A stretch of 64,000 nt of DNA from an uncultured Rikenellaceae bacterium (GTDB lineage Bacteria; Bacteroidota; Bacteroidia; Bacteroidales; VadinHA17): contig CAVOLF010000009.1 of the NCBI GenBank assembly GCA_963696805.1, positions 68,127 through 132,126 of the forward strand. The letters run 5' to 3'. Below the pieces are notes generated by a model. That model did not search any database, was not told where the DNA came from, and worked only from the letters and a program-made list of their open reading frames with translations. Shown piece after piece: positions 2-58,762 of the stretch. The position numbers and the translations under genes are program-made. Position 1 is the stretch's first letter, and each line of letters opens with the position of its first letter.

Positions 2-850
2 CTGGCTGAGCCCCTGCGGAGGAACACAGCACCCTGCATTGCGTACGGTGTCTTCAGGATAATGGCTGAGAATCCGGAAGCTGTGATTGCGGTGACTCCG
101 GCAGATCATCTGATAAAGAAAGAGGATGAGTTTATGAAAGTCATGAATGAGGCCTTCAGGTTCGCCTCTGAGAATGATGCTCTGCTTACCCTGGGTATCA
201 AGCCTGACAGGCCCGAGACAGGCTACGGATATATACAGGCCAATATGAAGCAGCCGGTAAACGGTTTCAGCAGCCTGCACAAGGTGAAAGCCTTCACCGA
301 AAAGCCTGAGCTGAAGATGGCCAGGCTTTTCCTGGAGAGCGGTGACTTTTACTGGAACAGCGGCATTTTTATCTGGAGGGCCAGCTCAATCCTTGCTGCC
401 TTTGACAGGCATCTGCCTGATATCTATCACTCTTTCCTTGAAGGGAAGGAGAAGTTCAGCACCCCGGCCGAGAAGGAGTTCATAAAGCGTGCGTATGCTC
501 AGTGCAGCAGCATCTCAGTTGACTACGGGATAATGGAGAAGGCTGACAATGTATATGTCATTTGCACTGACCTTGGCTGGTCTGACCTCGGGACATGGAG
601 CTCGCTGTACCTTTATTCCGATCACGACCGTAATGACAACGCCGTCCTTAACTCGAAGGCGCTGACCTATAATTCCGAAGGGAACATTGTCAGCCTTCCC
701 AAGGGCAAGATTGCAGTGATACAGGGGCTTGATGACTACATTATCATTGACAGCGGCGACGTGCTGCTGATAGTTTCGCGTGAGCAGGAGCAGAACATCA
801 AGATGTACCTTGATGACGTAGGAAAGACAACGGGAGACCAGTACCTTTAG
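2..850 (+). CDS. mannose-1-phosphate guanylyltransferase (NTP-transferase family), 5' end cut by window edge
   Basis: The frame is open from nt 2 (LAEPLRRNTAPCIAYGVFRI precedes the listed M at 62). Blocks RNTAPCIAY, PETGYGYI, FTEKP and DLGTWSSL are typical of ManC-type enzymes. Confidence 0.8.
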   Translation: MAEPLRRNTAPCIAYGVFRIMAENPEAVIAVTPADHLIKKEDEFMKVMNEAFRFASENDALLTLGIKPDRPETGYGYIQANMKQPVNGFSSLHKVKAFTEKPELKMARLFLESGDFYWNSGIFIWRASSILAAFDRHLPDIYHSFLEGKEKFSTPAEKEFIKRAYAQCSSISVDYGIMEKADNVYVICTDLGWSDLGTWSSLYLYSDHDRNDNAVLNSKALTYNSEGNIVSLPKGKIAVIQGLDDYIIIDSGDVLLIVSREQEQNIKMYLDDVGKTTGDQYL

Positions 851-877
851 TCCTCAGTCCTCAGTCCCGACTGACGG
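851..877. repeat. short phase-locked heptanucleotide array (tcctcag tcctcag tcccgac tgac) starting right after the stop codon
   Basis: cagtc cores at 855 and 862 and a gactg core at 869, all in one 7-nt register. Same word family as the arrays at 22692, 30113 and 58674. Confidence 0.6.
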
Positions 878-890
878 GGCCTTAAATAAA

Positions 891-10494: not shown

Positions 10495-12840
10495 ATGAGG
10501 GATAAAAAATTCCGGAAAAACATAATCTGGTTCTGGGTAATAATGTCTCTGCCAGTTGTTTTTGTGCTGACACTGTTCATCCTTATATCGGCCAACAGGC
10601 TTGGCCCTATCCCCTCGTTCGAGGAGGTTGAAAACCCTGCCAGCAACCTGGCAGCAGAGGTATATTCGGAAGACAATGTACTGCTTGGCAAATTCTATCT
10701 GCAGAGTCAAAACCGCACATGGACGGAATATGAAGATATTTCGCCGTATGTGGTTGATGCGCTGATAGCCACCGAGGACATCAGGTTCCAAAGGCATTCA
10801 GGCATTGATTTCAGGGGACTGGCCAGGGTGCTGGTCAAGACAATAATTTTAGGTAAGGAGACCGGCGGCGGAAGTACCATCTCCCAGCAGCTGGCGAAGA
10901 ACCTCTTCCTTCCCAGGGATCTCTCGAATGATCCTGCCATAGTACGGGGTGCAAGACTTACGGTGACCAAGTTCAAGGAGTGGCAGACGGCGGTGAAGCT
11001 CGAGAAGAGCTATACCAAGGAAGAGATCATCACGATGTACCTGAATGTCTTCGACTTTATATACAATGCTGTTGGCATTAACTCTGCCTCCCGCATTTAC
11101 TTCAACACCACCCCCGATTCACTGAACATCGAGCAGTCGGCCATGCTTGTCGGGATGCTCAAGAACTCCGTGGCCTACAATCCTCTGCGGAATGCGGAGA
11201 CGGCTCTCCGCAGACGAAACGTGGTGATATCGCAGATGGAGCGTTACGGCTACCTGCCACGTGAGGTGGCAGACTCTGTCAAGATGCTGCCGCTGGTGCT
11301 TGACCTGCGCGAAGACAGCCACAATACCGGCCCGGCAACCTATTTCAGGGAGTATATCCGCAGCACAATGATCAAGTACGAGCCCGAACGGAAAATGTTT
11401 TATTCCGATGACCAGTACAATGATGCAATGTGGCGCTGGCAGAACGACCCCCTTTACGGATGGTGCCGCAAGAACTTAAAGCCTGACGGCTCGAATTATA
11501 ATTTATACCGTGACGGACTGAGGATCTACACCACGCTGAACTCAAAGATGCAGACCTATGCCGAGGAGGCGCTTGTTGAACACCTTTCACAAAATCTTCA
11601 GCCTGTGTTCAGCAAAAAAGCAAAGACCTACAGGAACCCGCCCTATTCCAATGACCTTAACTCTGCACAGGTGAAACAGCTCATTGACAGGTCAGTGCGA
11701 CAGAGCGACAGGTACCAGAACATGAGGCGCGCCGGCGTACCTGAAGATTCAATCACCCTTGCCTTCAATACACCCATTCCCTTGAAGCTCTTTTCATGGG
11801 AGGGGGAGCGTGACACGGTGATGACGCCGCTCGATTCCATCAGGTACTACAAGTTCTTTGTCAGGTCATCATTCATGGCCATGGACCCGCATACGGGTCA
11901 TGTCAGGGCATATGTCGGCGGGCCCGACTTCAGGTACTTCATGTATGACGCCGTAACCCAGCAGAAGAAACAGGTAGGGTCAACCATCAAGCCCTTCCTC
12001 TACACCCTGGCGATGCAGGACGGCTATACGCCTTGCTATGAGGTTGAGAACATAGCCAGGTCGTTTGAAGTCAATGACACTGTATGGATACCCAGGAGCT
12101 CAGGTCCGGAGGAGTATCACGGGAAGATGGTGACCCTCAAATGGGGTCTGGCACAGAGTGAGAACTACATCTCGGCCTGGCTGATGAAGCAGTTTTCGCC
12201 CCAGGCTGTTGTTGACCTGATGCACCGCATGGGCATAAGGAGCTTCATAGACCCGGTATATTCAATTTTCCTCGGCACCTCAGACCTCTCCCTTGAGGAG
12301 ATGGTGGGGGCATACGGTACCTTCACCAACAAAGGGGTCTATACCCGTCCGCTTTATGTGACACGTATAGAGGACCGCAACGGCAACGTTATCTCCACCT
12401 TTACCCCTTTCATTGACGAGGTGATAAGTGAGGATGATGCCTACCTGATGACATCTCTTCTTCAGGGTGTTGTAAACACGGGAACAGGTCTCAGGCTAAG
12501 GGGCACCTACAAGCTAACCAACCAGATGGGAGGCAAGACGGGAACCACGCAGAACCACTCCAACGGATGGTACATGGGTGTCATGCCTGACCTGGTGGCA
12601 GGGGTATGGACAGGCTGGGAGGACCAGGCCATTCACTTTGAGGATCTGTCACTGGGGCAGGGATCTAACATGGCACTCCCGGTCTTCGGGCTGTTCCTTC
12701 AGAAGCTGTTGGCCGACAGTGATTTTGCATCTGTGGCTCAGTCACAGTTCGAGGCACCCTCCGGTTTCAACGTTGAGCTTGACTGTGACAACGTAAGGCG
12801 GCAGGAGCAGAGCGGCCCCTACAGGCAGCGTGAGTACTGA
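10495..12840 (+). CDS. class A penicillin-binding protein (transglycosylase + transpeptidase, PBP1A type)
   Basis: 781 aa with an N-terminal TM. The GT51 motifs are ATEDIRFQRHSGID and GGSTISQQLAKN. The transpeptidase motifs are GSTIKPF, SEN and KTGTT. Confidence 0.9.
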   Translation: MRDKKFRKNIIWFWVIMSLPVVFVLTLFILISANRLGPIPSFEEVENPASNLAAEVYSEDNVLLGKFYLQSQNRTWTEYEDISPYVVDALIATEDIRFQRHSGIDFRGLARVLVKTIILGKETGGGSTISQQLAKNLFLPRDLSNDPAIVRGARLTVTKFKEWQTAVKLEKSYTKEEIITMYLNVFDFIYNAVGINSASRIYFNTTPDSLNIEQSAMLVGMLKNSVAYNPLRNAETALRRRNVVISQMERYGYLPREVADSVKMLPLVLDLREDSHNTGPATYFREYIRSTMIKYEPERKMFYSDDQYNDAMWRWQNDPLYGWCRKNLKPDGSNYNLYRDGLRIYTTLNSKMQTYAEEALVEHLSQNLQPVFSKKAKTYRNPPYSNDLNSAQVKQLIDRSVRQSDRYQNMRRAGVPEDSITLAFNTPIPLKLFSWEGERDTVMTPLDSIRYYKFFVRSSFMAMDPHTGHVRAYVGGPDFRYFMYDAVTQQKKQVGSTIKPFLYTLAMQDGYTPCYEVENIARSFEVNDTVWIPRSSGPEEYHGKMVTLKWGLAQSENYISAWLMKQFSPQAVVDLMHRMGIRSFIDPVYSIFLGTSDLSLEEMVGAYGTFTNKGVYTRPLYVTRIEDRNGNVISTFTPFIDEVISEDDAYLMTSLLQGVVNTGTGLRLRGTYKLTNQMGGKTGTTQNHSNGWYMGVMPDLVAGVWTGWEDQAIHFEDLSLGQGSNMALPVFGLFLQKLLADSDFASVAQSQFEAPSGFNVELDCDNVRRQEQSGPYRQREY

Positions 12841-22691: not shown

Positions 22692-22816
22692 AGTCTCCAG
22701 TCCCCGGTCTTCAGTCTCCAGTCCTCATGCCAAGAGCCTGATAATCAATTCTTAATTCTTAAATCTTAATTCCGATTGCTGACTGCCGATTGCTGACTGC
22801 CGACTGATGACTATCG
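22692..22816. repeat. phase-locked heptanucleotide arrays filling a convergent-gene spacer
   Basis: agtc cores occur at 22692+7k (6 units). Then 10 consecutive units run in one register from 22747: aattctt aattctt aaatctt aattccg attgctg actgccg attgctg actgccg actgatg actatcg. The left (c)agtc half and right gactg half are reverse-complementary. Confidence 0.8.
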
Positions 22817-28964: not shown

Positions 28965-28981
28965 TTCATTATTGCTTATAC

Positions 28982-30112
28982 ATGGCGAGGGATATTACCG
29001 GTTACATCAGGGAGATGCTTTTCAGACACGATTGTGTCATTATTCCGGGTTTTGGTGCGTTTATAGGGAACTTTTTCCCTGCTCGTGCAGACCGCAGGGA
29101 AGGGCTCTTTCATCCTCCCTCAAGGAAGATAACATTCAACCGTCATCTTACCGGCAATGACGGGTTGCTGATAGGTCACATATCATCAGCTCTCGGCGCC
29201 GGTTACGGCGAAGCCCGCGACATTGTCCTGGAATGGGCTGATGACCTCAGAAGGAAAATCATAGCCGGAAACCCGGTACCCATTGAGCATCTGGGCACCT
29301 TCTCACTCAATTATGAGGGAGCAATAATCTTTGACCCTGACACCACGGTCAATTACCTTCTCTCATCGTACGGCCTGAGCGCCTATCACCGTCAGCCGAT
29401 GCCAGGTTATGACGTCAGGAAGAGGGCCCTTGAGAAACGTCGCGAACCCTCCGTGAACCAGCCTTCGGTAAGAAGCCTGCTCACGAGGGCCGCAGTGATA
29501 ATACCTATCCTGGTAGCCCTGGCCCTTGTGCCCTTCAATGACCATCTCTTCAAGGGAAATATAGAAGAATCAACCCTCAATCCGCTTGCCAGGGCTGAGC
29601 TTGAGTTCAACCGTGCTCAGATAGACGCCGGCACGACAGCAATAATAACAGCCGGGGAGACCGTGACTGCGGAGTCTGTCACGACTGACCCTTCAGGCAC
29701 GGAAAAGAGTGCAGTTCCCGGCCGCACTGATGCGGAAAAGCCAGCGGGATATGATCCTGCAGTCAGCGAGAGACCTGTTCAGCCAACCCCTGCAGTCAGC
29801 GAGAGACCTGTTCAGCCGTCCCCTGCTGTAACTGAGGCAACTGTGCGGCAGCCCGTCAGCCGCCCCTCACAGGCAGTCGTGGTTGAGGAGTACAGGTACC
29901 TGCTGATAATCGGCAGCTTCCAGGGTGAGGATAATGCCCTTACAATGGTCGAGAGCCTGCGCAGGCAGGGTTTTGACCCGGAAGTGGCAGGAGGGCCTGA
30001 CGGCTTCCTGCGCGTCAGCGCACAGTCATATGCCACGCTTGACGAAGCAATAGCAGAACTGGGAAAAGCGAGGAAGAATTACCCGGGCGCATGGGTATGC
30101 AAGAGCAGGTAG
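28982..30112 (+). CDS. HU/CCDC81-like N-terminal domain plus C-terminal SPOR domain protein
   Basis: The start MARDITGYIREMLFRHDCVIIPGFGAFIG is an HU-CCDC81-type N-terminus. It has a TM segment, a Pro/Ser/Val-rich linker with an 11-aa repeat, and a C-terminal YRYLLIIGSFQGEDNALTMVESLRRQGFDPEV (SPOR-like). Confidence 0.6.
   Translation: MARDITGYIREMLFRHDCVIIPGFGAFIGNFFPARADRREGLFHPPSRKITFNRHLTGNDGLLIGHISSALGAGYGEARDIVLEWADDLRRKIIAGNPVPIEHLGTFSLNYEGAIIFDPDTTVNYLLSSYGLSAYHRQPMPGYDVRKRALEKRREPSVNQPSVRSLLTRAAVIIPILVALALVPFNDHLFKGNIEESTLNPLARAELEFNRAQIDAGTTAIITAGETVTAESVTTDPSGTEKSAVPGRTDAEKPAGYDPAVSERPVQPTPAVSERPVQPSPAVTEATVRQPVSRPSQAVVVEEYRYLLIIGSFQGEDNALTMVESLRRQGFDPEVAGGPDGFLRVSAQSYATLDEAIAELGKARKNYPGAWVCKSR
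29756..29836 (+). repeat. in-frame 33-bp tandem repeat (2 full units plus a partial one) in the linker of the SPOR protein
   Basis: cctgcagtcagcgagagacctgttcagcc(aacc/gtcc) occurs twice, encoding PAVSERPVQP(T/S). A degenerate third start (cctgctgtaactgag) follows. Confidence 0.85.
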
Positions 30113-30250
30113 GATTCAGTCGGCAGTCTTCAGTCGGCAATCGGCAGTCGAAATCAGTCAGCAGTTACCAATCGACAATAGGCAGTCAATACGTAGGACT
30201 GAGGACTGAGGACTGAGGACTGAGGACTGAGGACTGAGGACTGCCGACTT
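30113..30250. repeat. largest inverted pair of phase-locked heptanucleotide arrays, (cagtcNN)n then (ggactga)6
   Basis: cagt/caat cores at 30117, 30124, 30131, 30138 and 30145. After a 3-nt phase slip they continue at 30155, 30162, 30169, 30176 and 30183. gactg cores sit at 30197+7k for k=0..7, including six perfect ggactga units. The array fills the spacer from the SPOR-gene stop to the metG stop. Confidence 0.9.
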
Positions 30251-32282
30251 ACTTGACGGGACTTCCGTTTTTTATCTTCTTCTCCGGAACCACAAAGACC
30301 AGCTTGCCGTTCTCATCTTCGGCCAGGAGAACCATTCCTTTCGATTCGATGCCCTTGATGGTACGCGGTGCCAGGTTGACAATGACCGAGATGATCTTGC
30401 CGGGCAGCTCCTCCGGACTGAAGTGTTCGGCTATGCCTGAAACGATAGTGCGTACATCGATTCCCGTGTCAACCTTCAGCTTTATGAGCTTTGCCGTTTT
30501 GGGGACCTTCTCTGCCTCAAGGATGGTGGCAGTGCGGATATCCATGCGAGTGAACTCATCGAAGCTGACATCCTCCTTCTGAGAGATCGCTGCAGCGCTC
30601 TCCGCAGCATTCGCCGTTTTAGTGTCAAGAAGCTTTTTTACCTGTCTCTCAATCTCTTCATCCTCCACCTTGCTGAACATCAGCTCGCCTGAAGAGACCG
30701 TGTGCCCGGGCAGGAGAAGGTCAGACCTGCCGGCAGCATCCCAGCTGAGGCCGGCGATACCCAGCCAGCCTCTCAGCTTATCCATCGAGAAGGGAAGGAA
30801 GGGTTCAAGCAGGATAGCGAGGTTGGCCGTTATCTGAAGTGAGATGTACATTATTGTTTTGACGCGGTCAGGGTCTGTTTTTACCACTTTCCACGGCTCC
30901 GTATCTGCAAGGTATTTGTTGCCGAGGCGTGCCAGGTTCATGGCTTCGGCAAGTGCCTGACGGAATCGGAATGCCTCAAGGTTGCTTTCGACGTTCTCCC
31001 GGCATGTCATGATGGAGTCCACCGTGGCAGTGTCATACTCAGTCATTACCCCCGGAGCCGGTACAGCACCCTTGTAATAATTATTTGTCAGAACCAGGGT
31101 ACGGTTCACGAAGTTGCCGAGGATGGCAACAAGCTCGTTATTGTTCCGCGCCTGGAACTCCTTCCAGGTGAAGTCGTTGTCTTTGGTCTCCGGGGCGCTG
31201 GCGCAGAGGGCATACCGCAGAGAGTCCTGCTTACCCGGAAAGTCAACGAGGTACTCGTGCAGCCAGACGGCCCAGTTGCGTGACGTGGAGATCTTGTCCG
31301 ACTCGAGGTTCAGGAACTCATTGGCAGGCACATTGTCAGGAAGGATATAGCTTCCCTCTGCCTTGAGCATTGCAGGGAAGATGATACAGTGAAAGACGAT
31401 ATTGTCCTTGCCGATAAAGTGGATCATGCGTGTCTCAGGGTCTTTCCAGTATTTCTCCCAGTCGGGGGTCAGTTCCCTCGTTGCGGAGATGTATCCTATT
31501 GGAGCGTCAAACCATACATAAAGGACTTTTCCTTCCGCTCCTTCAACGGGTACGGGCACGCCCCAGTCGAGGTCACGGCTGACAGCCCTGGGCTGCAGTC
31601 CCTGGTCGAGCCACGACTTGCACTGGCCGTATACGTTGCTCTTCCATTCGGTATGCTCGTCGAGGATCCATTTTCTTAACCAGGGCTCATATTTATCGAG
31701 AGGCAGGTACCAGTGGAGCGTGTCACGCATCACCGGCGCACTGCCGCTGATGGTTGAACGGGGGTTGATAAGATCGGTCGGACTGAGTGATGTGCCGCAC
31801 TTCTCGCACTGGTCGCCGTAGGCATTTTCATTGGAGCAATGAGGACAGGTACCGGTGATATACCTGTCTGCCAGGAAGCAGCCGGCCTCCTCATCATAGT
31901 ACTGGCTGGCGGTCTTCTCAATGAATTCACCCTGGTCATACAGCTTGCGGAAGAACTGAGAGGCAGTCTCGTAGTGTATTTTATTGGATGTGCGTGAATA
32001 GATGTCAAATGATATTCCGAAGTCGCTGAAGGCTTTCTTGTTGAGTTCATGATAGCGGTCAACCACCTCCTGCGGTGTGATGCCCTCCTTCCGTGCCTTG
32101 AGGGTGATGGGCACTCCGTGTTCGTCTGATCCGCAGATGGAGATGACATCCTCGCCGCGCATCCGCAGGTAACGGGTATAGATGTCCGACGGCACATAAA
32201 CACCTGCCAGGTGGCCGATATGTATTGGTCCGTTGGCATACGGCAGGGCTGATGTGATAAGGTGACGCTTGTACTTCTTCAT
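30249..32282 (-). CDS. metG: methionine--tRNA ligase
   Basis: Starts [27 protein letters not shown] (HIGH motif). It has a zinc knuckle ([18 protein letters not shown]), a KMSKS-like ISTSR region and a C-terminal EMAP/Trbp111-like tRNA-binding domain. The start is taken at the internal ATG at 32282. Confidence 0.95.
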
Positions 32283-34584: not shown

Positions 34585-35496
34585 ATGAAAGCTCTTGTAA
34601 TTCCGCCATATCTTGATGAGGGAGACCTGATAACAATCGTCACGCCTGCAAGTCACATTGATCAGGATGTTGTTCAGGATGCCGTGAAGTTGCTTGAAAA
34701 GTCAGGATTCATGGTGGCCCTGGGTAAGCATGTATTTACCAGAAGCGGGCCTTTTTCGGGAAGCGACGATGAGAGGCTTCATGATCTGCAGAAGGCAACC
34801 GATGATCGCCAGACAAAAGCAGTGCTCTGCTCCAGGGGCGGATATGGCATGTCAAGGATAGTGGACAGGATAGATTTTTCCGTGCTGAAGAGGCACCCCA
34901 AGTGGTACGTGGGTTACAGCGATATCACCTCATTGCACCTGTGGCTGAACAGGGTATGCGGTATAGCCTCGCTTCATGCTGAGATGCCTCTGAACTACAC
35001 CAATCCTGAATGCTCCCCGCTGTGCTATGATACCATGGTAATGGCACTGAAGGGCGAGGCGGAGCCCGTGAGATGGACAGCCCCGCACCAGGCGTCATTC
35101 ACCGTCACCGGACCGGTCACGGGTGGAAACATATCACTTATCTACAGCCTGAACGGAACGGTGGCTCAGCCTGACACCGAGGGGGCGATACTCTTCATAG
35201 AAGAGATAGGAGAGAAGTTCTATCATGTTGACCGGATGCTCACGGCGATGCGCATGACGGGAATGTTGAAAAACCTCTCCGCCCTGCTGGTCGGAGGGAT
35301 GGAAAAGATCACGGAGGGAGAGCATGTCTTCAATCAGACCGTTGAGGAGGTGGTTATGAATGTTGCCGGCGGTTACGGTTATCCGGTGCTCTTCAATTTC
35401 CCGGCCGGGCATATAAGTGACAACAGGGCGATCTACCTCGGCCGCGCTGCGCAGATCAGCCAGTCGGGCAGGGAGGCTGTCCTGAGCTGGCATTAA
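34585..35496 (+). CDS. ldcA: LD-carboxypeptidase (peptidase S66, muramoyl-tetrapeptide carboxypeptidase type)
   Basis: Contains CSRGGYG, the GYSDITSLH nucleophile motif and a C-terminal FPAGH. Confidence 0.8.
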   Translation: MKALVIPPYLDEGDLITIVTPASHIDQDVVQDAVKLLEKSGFMVALGKHVFTRSGPFSGSDDERLHDLQKATDDRQTKAVLCSRGGYGMSRIVDRIDFSVLKRHPKWYVGYSDITSLHLWLNRVCGIASLHAEMPLNYTNPECSPLCYDTMVMALKGEAEPVRWTAPHQASFTVTGPVTGGNISLIYSLNGTVAQPDTEGAILFIEEIGEKFYHVDRMLTAMRMTGMLKNLSALLVGGMEKITEGEHVFNQTVEEVVMNVAGGYGYPVLFNFPAGHISDNRAIYLGRAAQISQSGREAVLSWH

Positions 35497-35563
35497 CCTG
35501 CCGGCTGTTGCCATAGCTCATTGTTGATGACCAACATTGGCAGGTATATTGCATCAGGAATTT

Positions 35564-35592
35564 GCGATTATGACTGCCGACTGGTGACTGCC
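35564..35592. repeat. one-armed heptanucleotide array (cgattat gactgcc gactggt gactgcc)
   Basis: gactg cores at 35572, 35579 and 35586, preceded in phase by a cgatt unit. I found no complementary cagtc arm nearby. Confidence 0.55.
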
Positions 35593-35624
35593 AACGGCCT
35601 ACCCTACAATCTGGCTGCTTCGCT

Positions 35625-35647
35625 CAAATGACCCACCGGGTCATTTG
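35625..35647. terminator. 10-bp perfect hairpin in a convergent spacer (weak terminator candidate)
   Basis: caaatgaccc (35625-35634) pairs with gggtcatttg (35638-35647) around a 3-nt loop. Only a short T run (tt) follows. Confidence 0.35.
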
Positions 35648-35666
35648 TTAACGCTCGCCCCTCTAT

Positions 35667-35687
35667 TGCCTACTGCCTGTTGCCTCT
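35667..35687. repeat. three-unit heptanucleotide array tgcctac tgcctgt tgcctct abutting the stop of the downstream minus-strand gene
   Basis: tgcct cores at 35667, 35674 and 35681. A similar ctactgcc tacttac word occurs at 43066-43079. Confidence 0.5.
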
Positions 35688-35690
35688 TAT

Positions 35691-36887
35691 TCAGAATGCT
35701 GCCAGCAGCAGGTTGATATCCTTTGACAGTATCCCGAACTTCTGGCCGAGCACCTCGTTGGTGAGGATGCCGTTAAAGACGTACACACCGTCACGCAGTC
35801 CGTTGTTGAACTTGAGCATCGGGGTAATGCCTCCTGCGTCGGCTATCTCCTGCATCAGCGGCCTGAAGACGTTACTCAGCGCAATGGAGGCTGTCTTGGG
35901 AACGCGTGAGGGGAGGTTCCACGCCGAATAGTGTATCACTCCGTGCTTTTCGTAGATAGGATCCTTTATTGCCCTCGGCTCGGCCGTCTCGACGCATCCC
36001 CCCGTGTCTACGCTGAGGTCAACGATAACAGATCCGCGTTTCATCCCCTGGACCATCTCTTCGGTCACATAGAACCATGGCCTCAGGATATCCGTTGAGA
36101 GAGCCCCTATCAGCACATCGGCTGATTTCAGCGCTTTCTGAAGTACCTGCGGATGGAAGGTGGAGGTATAGAGCCTCTGTCCGAGCATATTCTGGAAATT
36201 GCGAAGGCGGTGCACCGAGGAGTCGAACACCCTGACTATGGCTCCCAGGCCCAGGGCAGCACGGGCAGCAAATTCACCGGCTGTGTTGGCTCCAATTATT
36301 ACAACTTCCGTCGGTGTCACCCCGGTCACCCCGCCGAGCATCACGCCCTTGCCTCCCGAGGTGGTGCTCAGGTATTCCGAAGCGAGGAGAACCGACGTGA
36401 TACCGCTTATCTCGCTCATCGATTCAACAACGGGGAACATGCCGTCGCTGTCTTTTATCCTTTCACTTGCCAGTGCGGTAACGCGTTTGCGCATCATCTG
36501 CGAGAGCGTCTCCTCTCCCATGGTGGCAGCATTCATGAATGAGATGACTATCTGCCCGCCCCTGAGCATGGAGGCCTCCTTCTGGGTGAAGGGGGCTATC
36601 TTTATGACGATGTCACAACCGTATATCTGTTGCGATGTGTCGGCCACAATGGCTCCGTTGTCACTGTACTCCCTGTCTGAGAAGCCGGCATTCGCACCGG
36701 CGCCGGTCTCCATAAAGACCTCATGGCCGGCATCGGTGAGTATCTTGACGGCTTCAGGGGTGAGAGCAATGCGTTTCTCGTCATCGAGAACGTCATGCGG
36801 CATTCCAACAGACATCTGCCGCCTGCTCACGGCTTTCTCAATAAGCTCTTCCCGCGGCATGAACGCGCTTCTTGACGGTTCACTCAT
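35691..36887 (-). CDS. alanine dehydrogenase / PNT-family NAD(P)-dependent oxidoreductase
   Basis: The N-terminal AlaDh_PNT domain starts with EKRIALTPEAVKIL. The Rossmann motif is VVIIGANTAGEFAAR. 398 aa. Confidence 0.7.
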   Translation of the reverse strand: MSEPSRSAFMPREELIEKAVSRRQMSVGMPHDVLDDEKRIALTPEAVKILTDAGHEVFMETGAGANAGFSDREYSDNGAIVADTSQQIYGCDIVIKIAPFTQKEASMLRGGQIVISFMNAATMGEETLSQMMRKRVTALASERIKDSDGMFPVVESMSEISGITSVLLASEYLSTTSGGKGVMLGGVTGVTPTEVVIIGANTAGEFAARAALGLGAIVRVFDSSVHRLRNFQNMLGQRLYTSTFHPQVLQKALKSADVLIGALSTDILRPWFYVTEEMVQGMKRGSVIVDLSVDTGGCVETAEPRAIKDPIYEKHGVIHYSAWNLPSRVPKTASIALSNVFRPLMQEIADAGGITPMLKFNNGLRDGVYVFNGILTNEVLGQKFGILSKDINLLLAAF

Positions 36888-37005: not shown

Positions 37006-37120
37006 ATGGTCTCGATGATCCTGTTGCCGTCACCCCTTGATGGGGTCCATGGTCTCGATGATTCTGTTGCCGTCACCCCTTGATGGGGTCCATGGTCTCG
37101 ATGATCCTGCTGCCGTTACC
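37006..37120. repeat. 43-bp tandem repeat, about 2.7 copies, spanning the 3' end and stop codon of tsaE
   Basis: Copies at 37006-37048 and 37049-37091 are 42/43 identical. A partial third copy at 37092-37120 matches 27/29 and lies inside the CDS. Confidence 0.9.
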
Positions 37121-42950: not shown

Positions 42951-42988
42951 GGTTATGAATTATGATTGTTGTCTTCACTACTACCTCG

Positions 42989-43079
42989 CGGATTTGCGAT
43001 TTGCGATTTGCGATTTGCGAATCTTGATTAAATCGACAATCGAAAATCTGAAATCGAAAATTTCTCTACTGCCTACTTA
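42989..43079. repeat. phase-locked heptanucleotide array with a different core: (gcgattt)4 then (aatcgNN)4
   Basis: 13 consecutive units in one register: cggattt gcgattt gcgattt gcgattt gcgaatc ttgatta aatcgac aatcgaa aatctga aatcgaa aatttct ctactgc ctactta. The cgatt and aatcg cores are reverse complements. Confidence 0.9.
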
Positions 43080-43102
43080 CTTTGATTAACACATCAAGCT
43101 AA

Positions 43103-50596: not shown

Positions 50597-50650
50597 AGAT
50601 GAAGGCAGGCGTCAGAGTCCGGGAAAAGACAAGATGTCAGAGCTTGAGCA

Positions 50651-50710
50651 GGGATAGGGGCAGGGGTCAGAGCCATAGCAGGGATATCGGCGGGTATCAG
50701 ATCCCGAGTA
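50651..50710. repeat. diverged 30-bp tandem duplication overlapping the stop codon of the first Stealth gene
   Basis: 50651-50680 and 50681-50710 share 22/30 positions, including an identical first 10 nt (agcagggata) and tcaga. gtcagag words also occur at 50611, 50636 and 50666. Confidence 0.45.
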
Positions 50711-57569: not shown

Positions 57570-57944
57570 TCAGATTGTGGGATAGAATGCATTCTCAATG
57601 TGGTCAACCTCCCGGCCGGCTCTGCTGATAATAATGGTGATGATGTCAAACCTGGCCTCTTTAGCCAGCCCGGTTCGGTTTATGTAGTTCGAGGCTGCAT
57701 TGATTATTGTCCTCTGTTTGGGGACATTGACCGCCTCTGCCGGATGGACCTGGTAGTCGACCGAACGGGTCTTGACCTCCACAAAAACAATGAAGCCATT
57801 GTTTTCGGCGATGATGTCAATCTCGGTCTTTCCCGATCTCCAGTTCCTGTCGCGGATCGTATAGCCGTTCTGCATGAGGTATGAGGCAGCCAGCTCTTCG
57901 CCCCTGCGTCCCAGTGAGGTTCTGTCGCTTGTTTCAGATTTCAA
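57570..57944 (-). CDS. yraN: YraN-family (UPF0102) endonuclease-like protein; only a TTG start is available
   Basis: Contains GRRGEELAASYL...GYTIRDRNWR...EIDIIA...VFVEVKTR. The listed start at 57944 is TTG, and no in-frame ATG precedes the conserved N-terminus. Confidence 0.8.
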   Translation of the reverse strand: MKSETSDRTSLGRRGEELAASYLMQNGYTIRDRNWRSGKTEIDIIAENNGFIVFVEVKTRSVDYQVHPAEAVNVPKQRTIINAASNYINRTGLAKEARFDIITIIISRAGREVDHIENAFYPTI

Positions 57945-58002
57945 TGAGCTGGTTTTTCTGAGGTTCTGTCGGTCATTTCAGACTTCAATGAGCCGGTTTT
58001 TT
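57915..58002. repeat. 44-bp tandem duplication (2 copies, 38/44 identical) across the response-regulator stop / yraN start junction
   Basis: Unit 1 (57915-57958) is tgaggttctgtcgcttgtttcagatttcaatgagctggtttttc. Unit 2 (57959-58002) is tgaggttctgtcggtcatttcagacttcaatgagccggtttttt. Confidence 0.9.
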
Positions 58003-58619: not shown

Positions 58620-58673
58620 GTTTCTGGAATAGTTTAACCTCTGCGAGGTGTCGTTTTATTGTCTTAAATCCCA

Positions 58674-58762
58674 TGTCCTCAGTCTTCAGTTTTCAGTCCT
58701 CAGTCTTCAGTAAATCATCATTTTACCGACTGTTGACTGCCGACTGCCGACTGCCGACTGAT
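58674..58762. repeat. inverted phase-locked heptanucleotide arrays inside the kinase / response-regulator spacer
   Basis: cagt(c) cores at 58680, 58687, 58694, 58701 and 58708. The loop is taaatcatcattttacc. gactg cores sit at 58728, 58735, 58742, 58749 and 58756. That gives five potential 5-bp helices in register. Confidence 0.9.

Follow-up and report, generated by a model that had tools for sequence, protein, structure and literature searches.

Heptanucleotide repeat arrays in the 3′ spacers of genes of an uncultured Bacteroidales genus

Described heptanucleotide repeats and the spacer beside metG

Tandem arrays of heptanucleotides have been noted in bacteria since 1990. The short tandemly repeated repetitive elements (STRRs) described by Mazel and colleagues in that year reportedly include units of CCCCAGT (STRR1) and CAACAGT (STRR3), which are circular permutations of CAGTCCC and CAGTCAA and thus members of a CAGTCNN family. 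Here, we report arrays of the same family in a 64-kb stretch of contig CAVOLF010000009.1 (hereafter the window), where they make up the 136-nt spacer at 30113-30248 between a SPOR-domain gene and metG. Judged by its MetG sequence (the protein is identical to cluster member P0125), the host belongs to an uncultured Bacteroidales genus. The arrays of the window are members of a described class, the prokaryotic heptanucleotide (STRR-like) repeats, because they are tandem at 7 nt, show an excess of period 7, are biased to 3′ spacers, turn over rapidly and are frequently inverted. A preliminary description, made from the letters of the window, had proposed a repeat class not previously described; that proposal does not stand, since heptanucleotide arrays were already known (PMC2670836; PMC4679880; PMC4692102). 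They are a new member of that class, from this genus, with several unit families mixed within one spacer. In our judgment, the arrays probably constitute an STRR-like satellite library that is turned over by slippage and inter-array recombination and is confined to 3′ spacers.

According to the summary of Mrazek (2007) given in PMC4679880, heptanucleotide repeats are the most abundant class of long simple-sequence repeats in prokaryotes, and the preference for 7 nt possibly reflects a polymerase contact length. Arrays of TAACTGA and other heptamers occur in Beggiatoaceae, Cyanobacteria and five Bacteroidetes, with 7-nt insertions or deletions (indels) between strains (MacGregor, 2015; PMC4679880). 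Like the arrays of the window, these are intergenic and, in Bacteroidetes, mixed with other heptamer arrays, and the core ACTGA is common to TAACTGA and GACTGAG. In Beggiatoaceae, however, most of them stand just upstream of start codons as forward direct repeats, with one inverted set reported, whereas the arrays studied here consist of CAGTCNN and other units, sit at the 3′ ends of genes and are frequently inverted, which places them outside the TAACTGA family.

The heptamers GGGAATC and GGGGA(C/T)T of Xanthomonas and Nostoc are 89-93% intergenic and lie on average 28 nt from the upstream open reading frame (ORF); they are transcribed for the most part and diverge markedly from one sister species to another, and no function was found for them (Rehm et al., 2015; PMC4692102). 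In Xanthomonas, the arrays are under-represented between divergent genes, and each of two genomes with ~185 arrays holds 70-75 inverted pairs with stem-loop potential (PMC4692102). The present arrays share with these repeats their tandem 7-nt units with invariant and variable positions, typically in about four copies, their intergenic placement near an upstream stop, their rarity between divergent genes, their frequent inverted pairing, and a length and sequence that vary widely between close species. They differ in host phylum, in the mixture of unit families and in base composition: the Xanthomonas/Nostoc unit is G-rich and forms G-quadruplexes, which CAGTCNN, GATTTGC and AATTCTT cannot. In filamentous cyanobacteria, hairpins of 7-bp STRRs are common, for example between hupS and hupL, and may stabilize transcripts or couple translation (PMC2670836). 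STRRs too are 7-bp tandem units dispersed in intergenic regions and able to form hairpins, but they were defined in heterocystous cyanobacteria, where they also occur inside structured-RNA genes. The closest MetG loci to that of the window all come from uncultured Bacteroidales or Bacteroidota, so these are not STRRs in the strict sense, which calls for a cyanobacterial host.

The spacer extends from the stop codon of the SPOR-domain gene (TAG, 30110-30112) to that of metG (Table 1). Its lag-7 identity is 0.69, compared to 0.254±0.038 in shuffled sequence (maximum 0.395) and a mean of 0.248 over all 136-nt segments of the 64 kb, no other of which exceeded 0.705. When lags 2-15 were scanned, 28-nt segments with at least 24 matches were found only at lag 7 and its harmonic, 14. 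By direct reading, cagt/caat cores occur at 30117, 30124, 30131, 30138 and 30145, beginning 4 nt past the SPOR-gene stop, and after a 3-nt slip at 30155, 30162, 30169, 30176 and 30183. The periodicity and all of these positions had been given in the preliminary description and were reproduced. It had also placed gactg cores at 30197+7k for k=0..7; those for k=0..6 are there (ggactga six times and ggactgc once), but the k=7 copy at 30246 reads gactt and overlaps the metG stop (tta, 30249-30251). Tandem Repeats Finder (TRF) reported CAGTCGG at 30117-30150 (period 7, 4.9 copies, 77% matches) and AGGACTG at 30195-30243 (period 7, 7.0 copies, 100% matches), that is, head-to-tail 7-nt units in at least three copies, as in other heptanucleotide repeats. 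The spacer is therefore built of 7-nt tandem repeats.

The two halves of the spacer are complementary and, as had been proposed, can zip into 5-6-bp helices separated by mismatches of 1-2 nt. The predicted fold is a ladder of such helices with small symmetric internal loops, block 2 of the left half-array forming its inner part, on an 18-bp perfect basal stem. This stem arises because the last right-hand unit departs from its own array and complements the first unit on the left, CAGTCGG, exactly. As RNA, the plus strand folds at -64.3 kcal/mol (z -7.25) and the minus strand at -62.2 kcal/mol (z -7.96); as single-stranded DNA, the spacer folds at -30.2 kcal/mol (z -5.75). Behind the hairpin, neither strand carries a U-tract, the tails being UUACUUGACG (+) and GAAUCCUACC (-), so that of the two parts of an intrinsic terminator, a GC-rich hairpin and a U-tract behind it, the spacer has only the hairpin. 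Intrinsic terminators also place a stable hairpin directly downstream of stops, and a classical bidirectional one occupies the orthologous spacer of L004 (MetG identity 78%) in place of an array; but the stem of the spacer is far longer, its internal loops are regular, and it is not conserved in close relatives. A simple terminator scan of the 20-40 kb region made no call in the spacer, with a single call at 30255-30269 inside the metG coding sequence, and was uninformative, its hits lying mostly inside genes. Rfam 15 returned no match in the window at the gathering score and none even at E≤1 for 30050-30310 or 35480-35710.

Repetitive extragenic palindromic (REP) units and the bacterial interspersed mosaic elements (BIME) that contain them are thought to shield upstream mRNA from 3′ exonucleases. 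They are also repeated hairpin-forming extragenic mosaics at gene 3′ ends and between convergent genes, and to this extent are a functional analog of the arrays. Their units, in contrast, are imperfect palindromes of ~35-40 nt with conserved sequence and a link to REP-associated tyrosine transposases, while the arms here are tandem arrays of 7-nt units. Identity with REP/BIME was rejected on these grounds, the unit being 7 nt and a long conserved palindromic unit being absent. No transposase was found among the 10 flanking proteins scanned with Pfam. Clustered regularly interspaced short palindromic repeats (CRISPR) were rejected as well, since the 7-nt units are contiguous whereas CRISPR repeats measure 23-50 nt and alternate with unique spacers of similar length, and repeats of a coding sequence were rejected on anatomy. 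All three had been dismissed in the preliminary description, and the anatomy of the unit bears this out.

Table 1. Features of the window (plain coordinates) and arrays directly after the metG stop in the window and its relatives.
Feature	Position	Strand or setting	Make-up	Basis or remark
HU-CCDC81/SPOR-domain gene	28979..30112	+		Pfam PF18174, PF18175, PF05036; ORF list
metG (methionine-tRNA ligase)	30249..32282	-	stop TAA 30249-30251	Pfam PF09334, PF19303, PF01588
Left half-array, block 1	30117..30151		CAGTCGG, CAGTCTT, CAGTCGG, CAATCGG, CAGTCGA	direct reading; TRF
Left half-array, block 2	30155..30189		degenerate: CAGTCAG, CAGTTAC, CAATCGA, CAATAGG, CAGTCAA	direct reading
Right half-array	30195..30248		AGGACTG ×7 perfect, then terminal CCGAC(T) unit adjoining metG stop	TRF, fold
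Predicted ladder hairpin, whole spacer	30118..30249	both strands		RNA and single-stranded DNA folding
Second array spacer	22692..22812	convergent, DUF4954 gene / GDP-mannose-dehydratase-like gene	CAGTCYC-type ×4.6, central AATTCTT ×3.7, GATTGCT/GACTGCC with 14-nt period	stop to stop
Third array spacer	58675..58760	between two same-strand (-) genes	inverted arms CAGTCYT ×5.3, CCGACTG ×5.0	3 nt from histidine-kinase gene stop, 56 nt from next start
Fourth array spacer	42985..43082	between same-strand (-) genes	GATTTGC ×4.3, linker, AAATCGA ×4.6, CTACTGC units
Fifth site	35572..35689	convergent, LD-carboxypeptidase / alanine dehydrogenase	GACTGCC ×3 (35572-35592), CTAYTGC ×3.3 (35663-35685)
Minor site	849..878	begins inside stop TAG of nucleotidyl-transferase gene	AGTCCTC ×2.7 and one inverted GACTG
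Classical intrinsic terminator	~892-925	-, downstream of gldN	15-bp stem, then UUUAUUU	-28.5 kcal/mol, z -4.4
Window metG spacer			CAGTCCT ×7
L207 metG spacer			CAGTCGG, then AATTAAG, then GACTGTG/GACTGAA arrays	inverted design too
L202, L203 metG spacer			GATTTGC ×6, linker, AAATCGA arrays
L206 metG spacer			GATTTGC/GATTGTC
L201, L205 metG spacer			AAGTCCTTAATGTCC, CTACTGC, GACTGAA units
L204 metG spacer			GATTTGC, GATTGTC, CTACTGC units	59-nt (about 60-nt) higher-order duplication
L002 metG spacer			direct CAGTCGS arrays	42-nt super-repeat
L001 metG spacer			GGTCTGA ×7+	contig terminates within array
L003 metG spacer			GATTTGC, AATTCTT, 70-nt core

Placement of the arrays and their turnover among relatives

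Counting the spacer beside metG, the window holds six array sites. Arrays are carried by 4/6 convergent spacers, by 2/23 spacers between same-strand (tandem) genes and by 0/6 divergent ones (convergent 4/6 vs. 2/29 others, Fisher p=0.004), so that within the window the enrichment at gene 3′ ends expected in the preliminary description was found. CAGTC/GACTG words are intergenic in 24% of cases, compared to 8.4% of the sequence. In two purely convergent spacers the arrays fill the space from one stop codon to the other; at several sites the stop codon lies inside the first unit (e.g., TAGTCCT, TAGTCAT), and arrays in tandem spacers leave 41-56 nt before the next start. In 110 kb of the genus, 16 arrays with 2.5 or more copies had period 7, and two each had periods 6 and 8. 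A wider set, 1.53 Mb from the window and 80 Bacteroidota metG loci, gave 47 arrays of three or more copies at period 7, compared to 12 at period 6, 8 at period 8 and 12 at period 9. Thirty-eight of the 47 period-7 arrays were intergenic, though ~88% of this DNA is coding, with 14 in convergent and 3 in divergent spacers. Heptamer units were highly diverse across Bacteroidota genera, and several of these units occur as inverted pairs. Arrays thus occupy gene 3′ spacers up to or into the stop codon and avoid spacers that bear promoters.

Inverted arrays are present at four of the six sites of the window, although the design beside metG is not as widespread as had been supposed. Of the positions at which it was said to recur (851, 22692, 35564, 42989 and 58674), true inverted CAGTCNN/GACTGNN half-arrays were found at 22692-22812 (fold z -4.0 on the plus and -1.2 on the minus strand, lag-7 identity 0.63) and 58675-58760 (z -6.4 and -5.3). 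The correspondence is partial at 42991-43061, which is inverted but built of GATTTGC/AAATCGA units (z -2.3 and -0.4), and is lacking at the other two. At 35572-35689, the two arrays are direct, not inverted, and flank a 70-nt core with its own hairpin; the array at 849-878 folds no better than shuffled sequence, as against z values of about -7 to -8 at 30113-30248. Likewise, some arrays touch a stop codon, as all were said to do, but that at 42991-43061 ends 24 nt from the stop, and the left array of 35572-35689 lies ~75 nt from the nearest one. The lengths of paired arms, in units, are closely matched (10 vs. 8, 5.3 vs. 5.0, 4.3 vs. 4.6 and 4.6 vs. ~5.9).

The same spacers were compared in close relatives (L201-L207; MetG 96-98% identical, flanking DNA 89-93% identical) and in more distant congeners (L001, L002 and L003). 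An 1112-aa “MetG” (P0001, on an ENA contig of 5334 nt) was set aside as a chimera of a distant organism, in which residues ~103-533 appear twice, probably through misassembly. Promoter-bearing spacers of the relatives' contigs are conserved and align well with the window. The spacer after the metG stop, by contrast, differs altogether in each lineage and always consists of 7-nt arrays starting a few bases from the stop, with five kinds of content among strains whose MetG is 96-98% identical; different units have been amplified at one locus in different strains (Table 1). Fold significance varies in the same way, z being -4.8/-4.9 in L207, -2.5/-1.6 in L202, -1.5/-0.2 in L201 and -0.3 in L204. 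The convergent spacer between the genes for alanine dehydrogenase and LD-carboxypeptidase (S66) measures 194 nt in the window, where it holds arrays; in L204 its length is 127 nt, in L201 it is 47 nt and in L202 just 6 nt. Since sequences turn over and fold significance is not conserved, what stays constant is that 3′ spacers contain heptamer arrays, and neither a given sequence nor the hairpin. Arrays are also dispensable at a given site, as the last-named spacer shows by its shrinkage to 6 nt in L202. Relatives keep arrays after the metG stop, but units and architectures differ and the fold is not conserved, which weakens the implied view of the hairpin as a designed feature.

These data bear on the possibility that the hairpin itself is selected, as a bidirectional terminator or mRNA 3′-end stabilizer comparable in function to REP/BIME, and would be built of 7-nt units because periodic arms keep pairing after indels. 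The hairpin beside metG is very stable on both strands, strong folds also occur at 58668 and 22689, and it sits exactly stop to stop between convergent genes; yet neither strand has a U-tract, and the organism uses classical U-tailed terminators alongside heptamer hairpins (e.g., at ~892-925). Matched arm lengths agree with selection for pairing, but in most units the two positions that vary are non-complementary between arms. The classical terminator at the same position in L004 is suggestive, whereas L201/L205 and L204 retain arrays whose folds are no better than shuffles, and another array-bearing convergent spacer is down to the 6 nt of L202. Inverted partners are also more frequent in metagenomes than chance would give (see below). 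Taken together, we consider selection for the hairpin unlikely as the reason for the arrays.

In a metagenome scan for four tandem CAGTCNN units, at least 120 contigs of all G+C ranges matched, often beside other heptamer arrays and directly after stop codons; the gene calls on these contigs are crude, and the split into coding and intergenic matches is unreliable. In this sample, an inverted partner lay within 200 nt of 22 of 131 CAGTCNN arrays, while a run of this kind is found near ~1% of random positions, and both orientations occur. A rule that the sense strand after the stop reads CAGTCNN holds at most sites of the window but was rejected, as it fails in the metagenome sample (19 vs. 20) and in L001. 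With the final 24 nt of metG as anchor, a scan of metagenomes gave no match, nor did look-ups of the exact MetG protein of the window. Among IMG/VR viral contigs, CAGTC at period 7 was found at 81 loci, compared to at least 120 each for the control cores CTGAC and TCCAG and 18 for ACGTC, and CAGTC at periods 6 and 8 at no fewer than 119 and at 108 loci, respectively. Neither the core nor the period stands out in IMG/VR, which is uninformative on both, viral and giant-virus coding repeats confounding the test.

The switching of units also speaks to a phased platform on which a DNA- or RNA-binding protein would recognize 7-nt units, three of which make 21 bp, or about two helical turns. Binders of the S1, Csp or CsrA type have been proposed for TAACTGA repeats (PMC4679880), and copy number changes without loss of the period. 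Within arrays, CAGTC is a conserved core, but the unit at one locus changes completely between strains (CAGTCCT, GATTTGC, CTACTGC, AAGTCCTTAATGTCC), other Bacteroidota have unrelated units, and CAGTC arrays at 7 nt in viral contigs are no commoner than those of two of the three composition-matched control cores. No candidate protein was identified, and we regard such a platform as very doubtful.

Contigs of L001, L202, L203 and L206 end inside heptamer arrays, as do those of L110, L129, L136 and L153. Arrays are thus places where independent assemblies often break, and the copy numbers given for them may be minimum values. That the arrays are themselves assembly artefacts is nevertheless extremely improbable. 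Relatives' contigs (L001, L202, L203, L206) do break there, and copy numbers may be collapsed or uncertain, but L201 and L205, which come from two different samples, are identical across the 187 nt compared, including the 160-nt spacer, the perfect array beside metG measures 49 nt and lies below typical read length, and similar arrays occur in at least 120 metagenome contigs and many metagenome-assembled genomes from independent projects. An artefact is excluded for the existence of the arrays, but not for their exact copy number. For annotation, the arrays should be treated as hypervariable repeats of a known type that are prone to break assemblies, and not as a new genetic system.

Dispersed modules and the origin of the arrays

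Direct reading shows that units of the genus are linked in a network of single substitutions (CAGTCGG, CAATCGG, CAGTAGG, GATTGCC, GATTGTC and GATTTTC/GATTTGC), to which AATTCTT is added. CAGTAGG is the reverse complement of CTACTGC, and GATTGCC can be rotated to CCGATTG. Repeats of higher order, at 14 and 42 nt, are multiples of 7 and stay in register. Whole modules are shared as well. An 85-nt composite at 42991-43075 of the window matches L202 12072-12156, directly after the metG stop and hence at a non-orthologous site, at 96.5% identity, while the flanking genes are only ~91-92% identical, which points to a recent event of dispersal, or of gene conversion from one spacer to another. The 70-nt core is found at 35597-35668 of the window and at 12150-12219 and 19540-19614 of L003. 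It contains a 10-bp hairpin (AAATGACCC-ACC-GGGTCATTT) with compensatory changes among copies (GATCC...GGATC in L003), its RNA folds reach z -4.6 and -3.0, and it has no Rfam match. In L003, arrays of GATTTGC and AATTCTT always precede the core, and the composite occurs twice within 22 kb. The core may represent a small module that is mobile or resembles a terminator. On the whole, the network of units and their dispersal resemble a satellite “library” whose members are differentially amplified and moved between loci.

The modules could alternatively mean that arrays are parts of small dispersing mosaics, similar to miniature inverted-repeat transposable elements, that insert beside stop codons or terminators. 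The near identity of the 85-nt module at non-orthologous sites between more divergent genes, and the GATTTGC, AATTCTT and core composite repeated in L003 with its core also in the window, are what such elements would leave, but ectopic recombination between arrays accounts for the same data. Neither terminal inverted repeats nor target-site duplications were seen in the limited genome sequence at hand. Moreover, the elements are not constant in their boundaries or in the copy numbers within them, most arrays have nothing in common from site to site, and no transposase was linked to the arrays. Insertion of mobile mosaics is thus quite improbable as a general source of the arrays.

A satellite library at gene 3′ ends would be maintained as follows. 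Arrays would grow and shrink by in-register strand slippage, for which 7 nt is a favored register in many bacteria, and would be reshuffled among loci by inter-array recombination or template switching. Selection would purge only those copies that damage coding or promoter sequence, leaving the distribution that is seen. Where complementary arrays come to lie on the two sides of a spacer, RNA transcribed through it, or one strand of its DNA, would fold into a ladder hairpin that tolerates shifts of register. Such a hairpin plausibly forms a barrier at the 3′ ends of the two convergent mRNAs that stops exonucleases or read-through, as is supposed for the hairpins of REP/BIME and STRRs. We infer that this role is facultative and the hairpin a frequent by-product, and that it is not why the arrays exist.

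Several points weigh against slippage and recombination as the explanation. No pair of strains differing only by ±7 nt in one array was found, so that slippage is not directly evidenced, and the polymerase-footprint account of the 7-nt preference is a literature hypothesis only. Matched arm lengths are not predicted by independent neutral slippage. Finally, all nine relatives examined retain some array directly after the metG stop, which could reflect selection for its presence.

The last of these points could also be read as the work of a dedicated process that writes or spreads arrays at gene 3′ ends, in place of passive slippage. The writer might be a polymerase, primase or reverse-transcriptase-like activity whose register is 7 nt, or else a non-autonomous element of small size that targets DNA close to stop codons. 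It would fit with relatives' arrays starting a few bases from the metG stop despite total sequence turnover, with whole modules at non-orthologous stop codons, and with a period that is common across phyla with unrelated units. We nevertheless hold active writing to be very unlikely, and retain slippage and exchange within a library as the preferred explanation. In either case, the genus is heavily sampled in metagenomes and its arrays differ among strains with ~90-93% identical flanking genes, which makes it a convenient natural experiment for the birth, death and dispersal of arrays, for strain typing, and for the effects of hairpins on mRNA 3′ ends.

Other repeats in the window

Repeats of other kinds were also noted. 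A 43-nt tandem repeat (37006-37120, 2.7 copies, 94% matches) lies at and just past the 3′ end of the TsaE gene and is present in ~2 copies in L204 and ~1 in L201, and is thus a variable 3′-end repeat that is not a heptamer array. A 44-nt tandem repeat (57915-58001, 2.0 copies, 88% matches) spans the boundary of two same-strand genes. The convergent spacer at 50597-50696 has no 7-nt periodicity; the motifs GTCAGAG and GCAGGG(A/G)TA recur in it and may represent another type of repeat. Within the SPOR-domain gene itself, an in-frame 33-nt tandem repeat (29756-29826, 2.2 copies) encodes the linker PAVSERPVQP(T/S) in repeated form.

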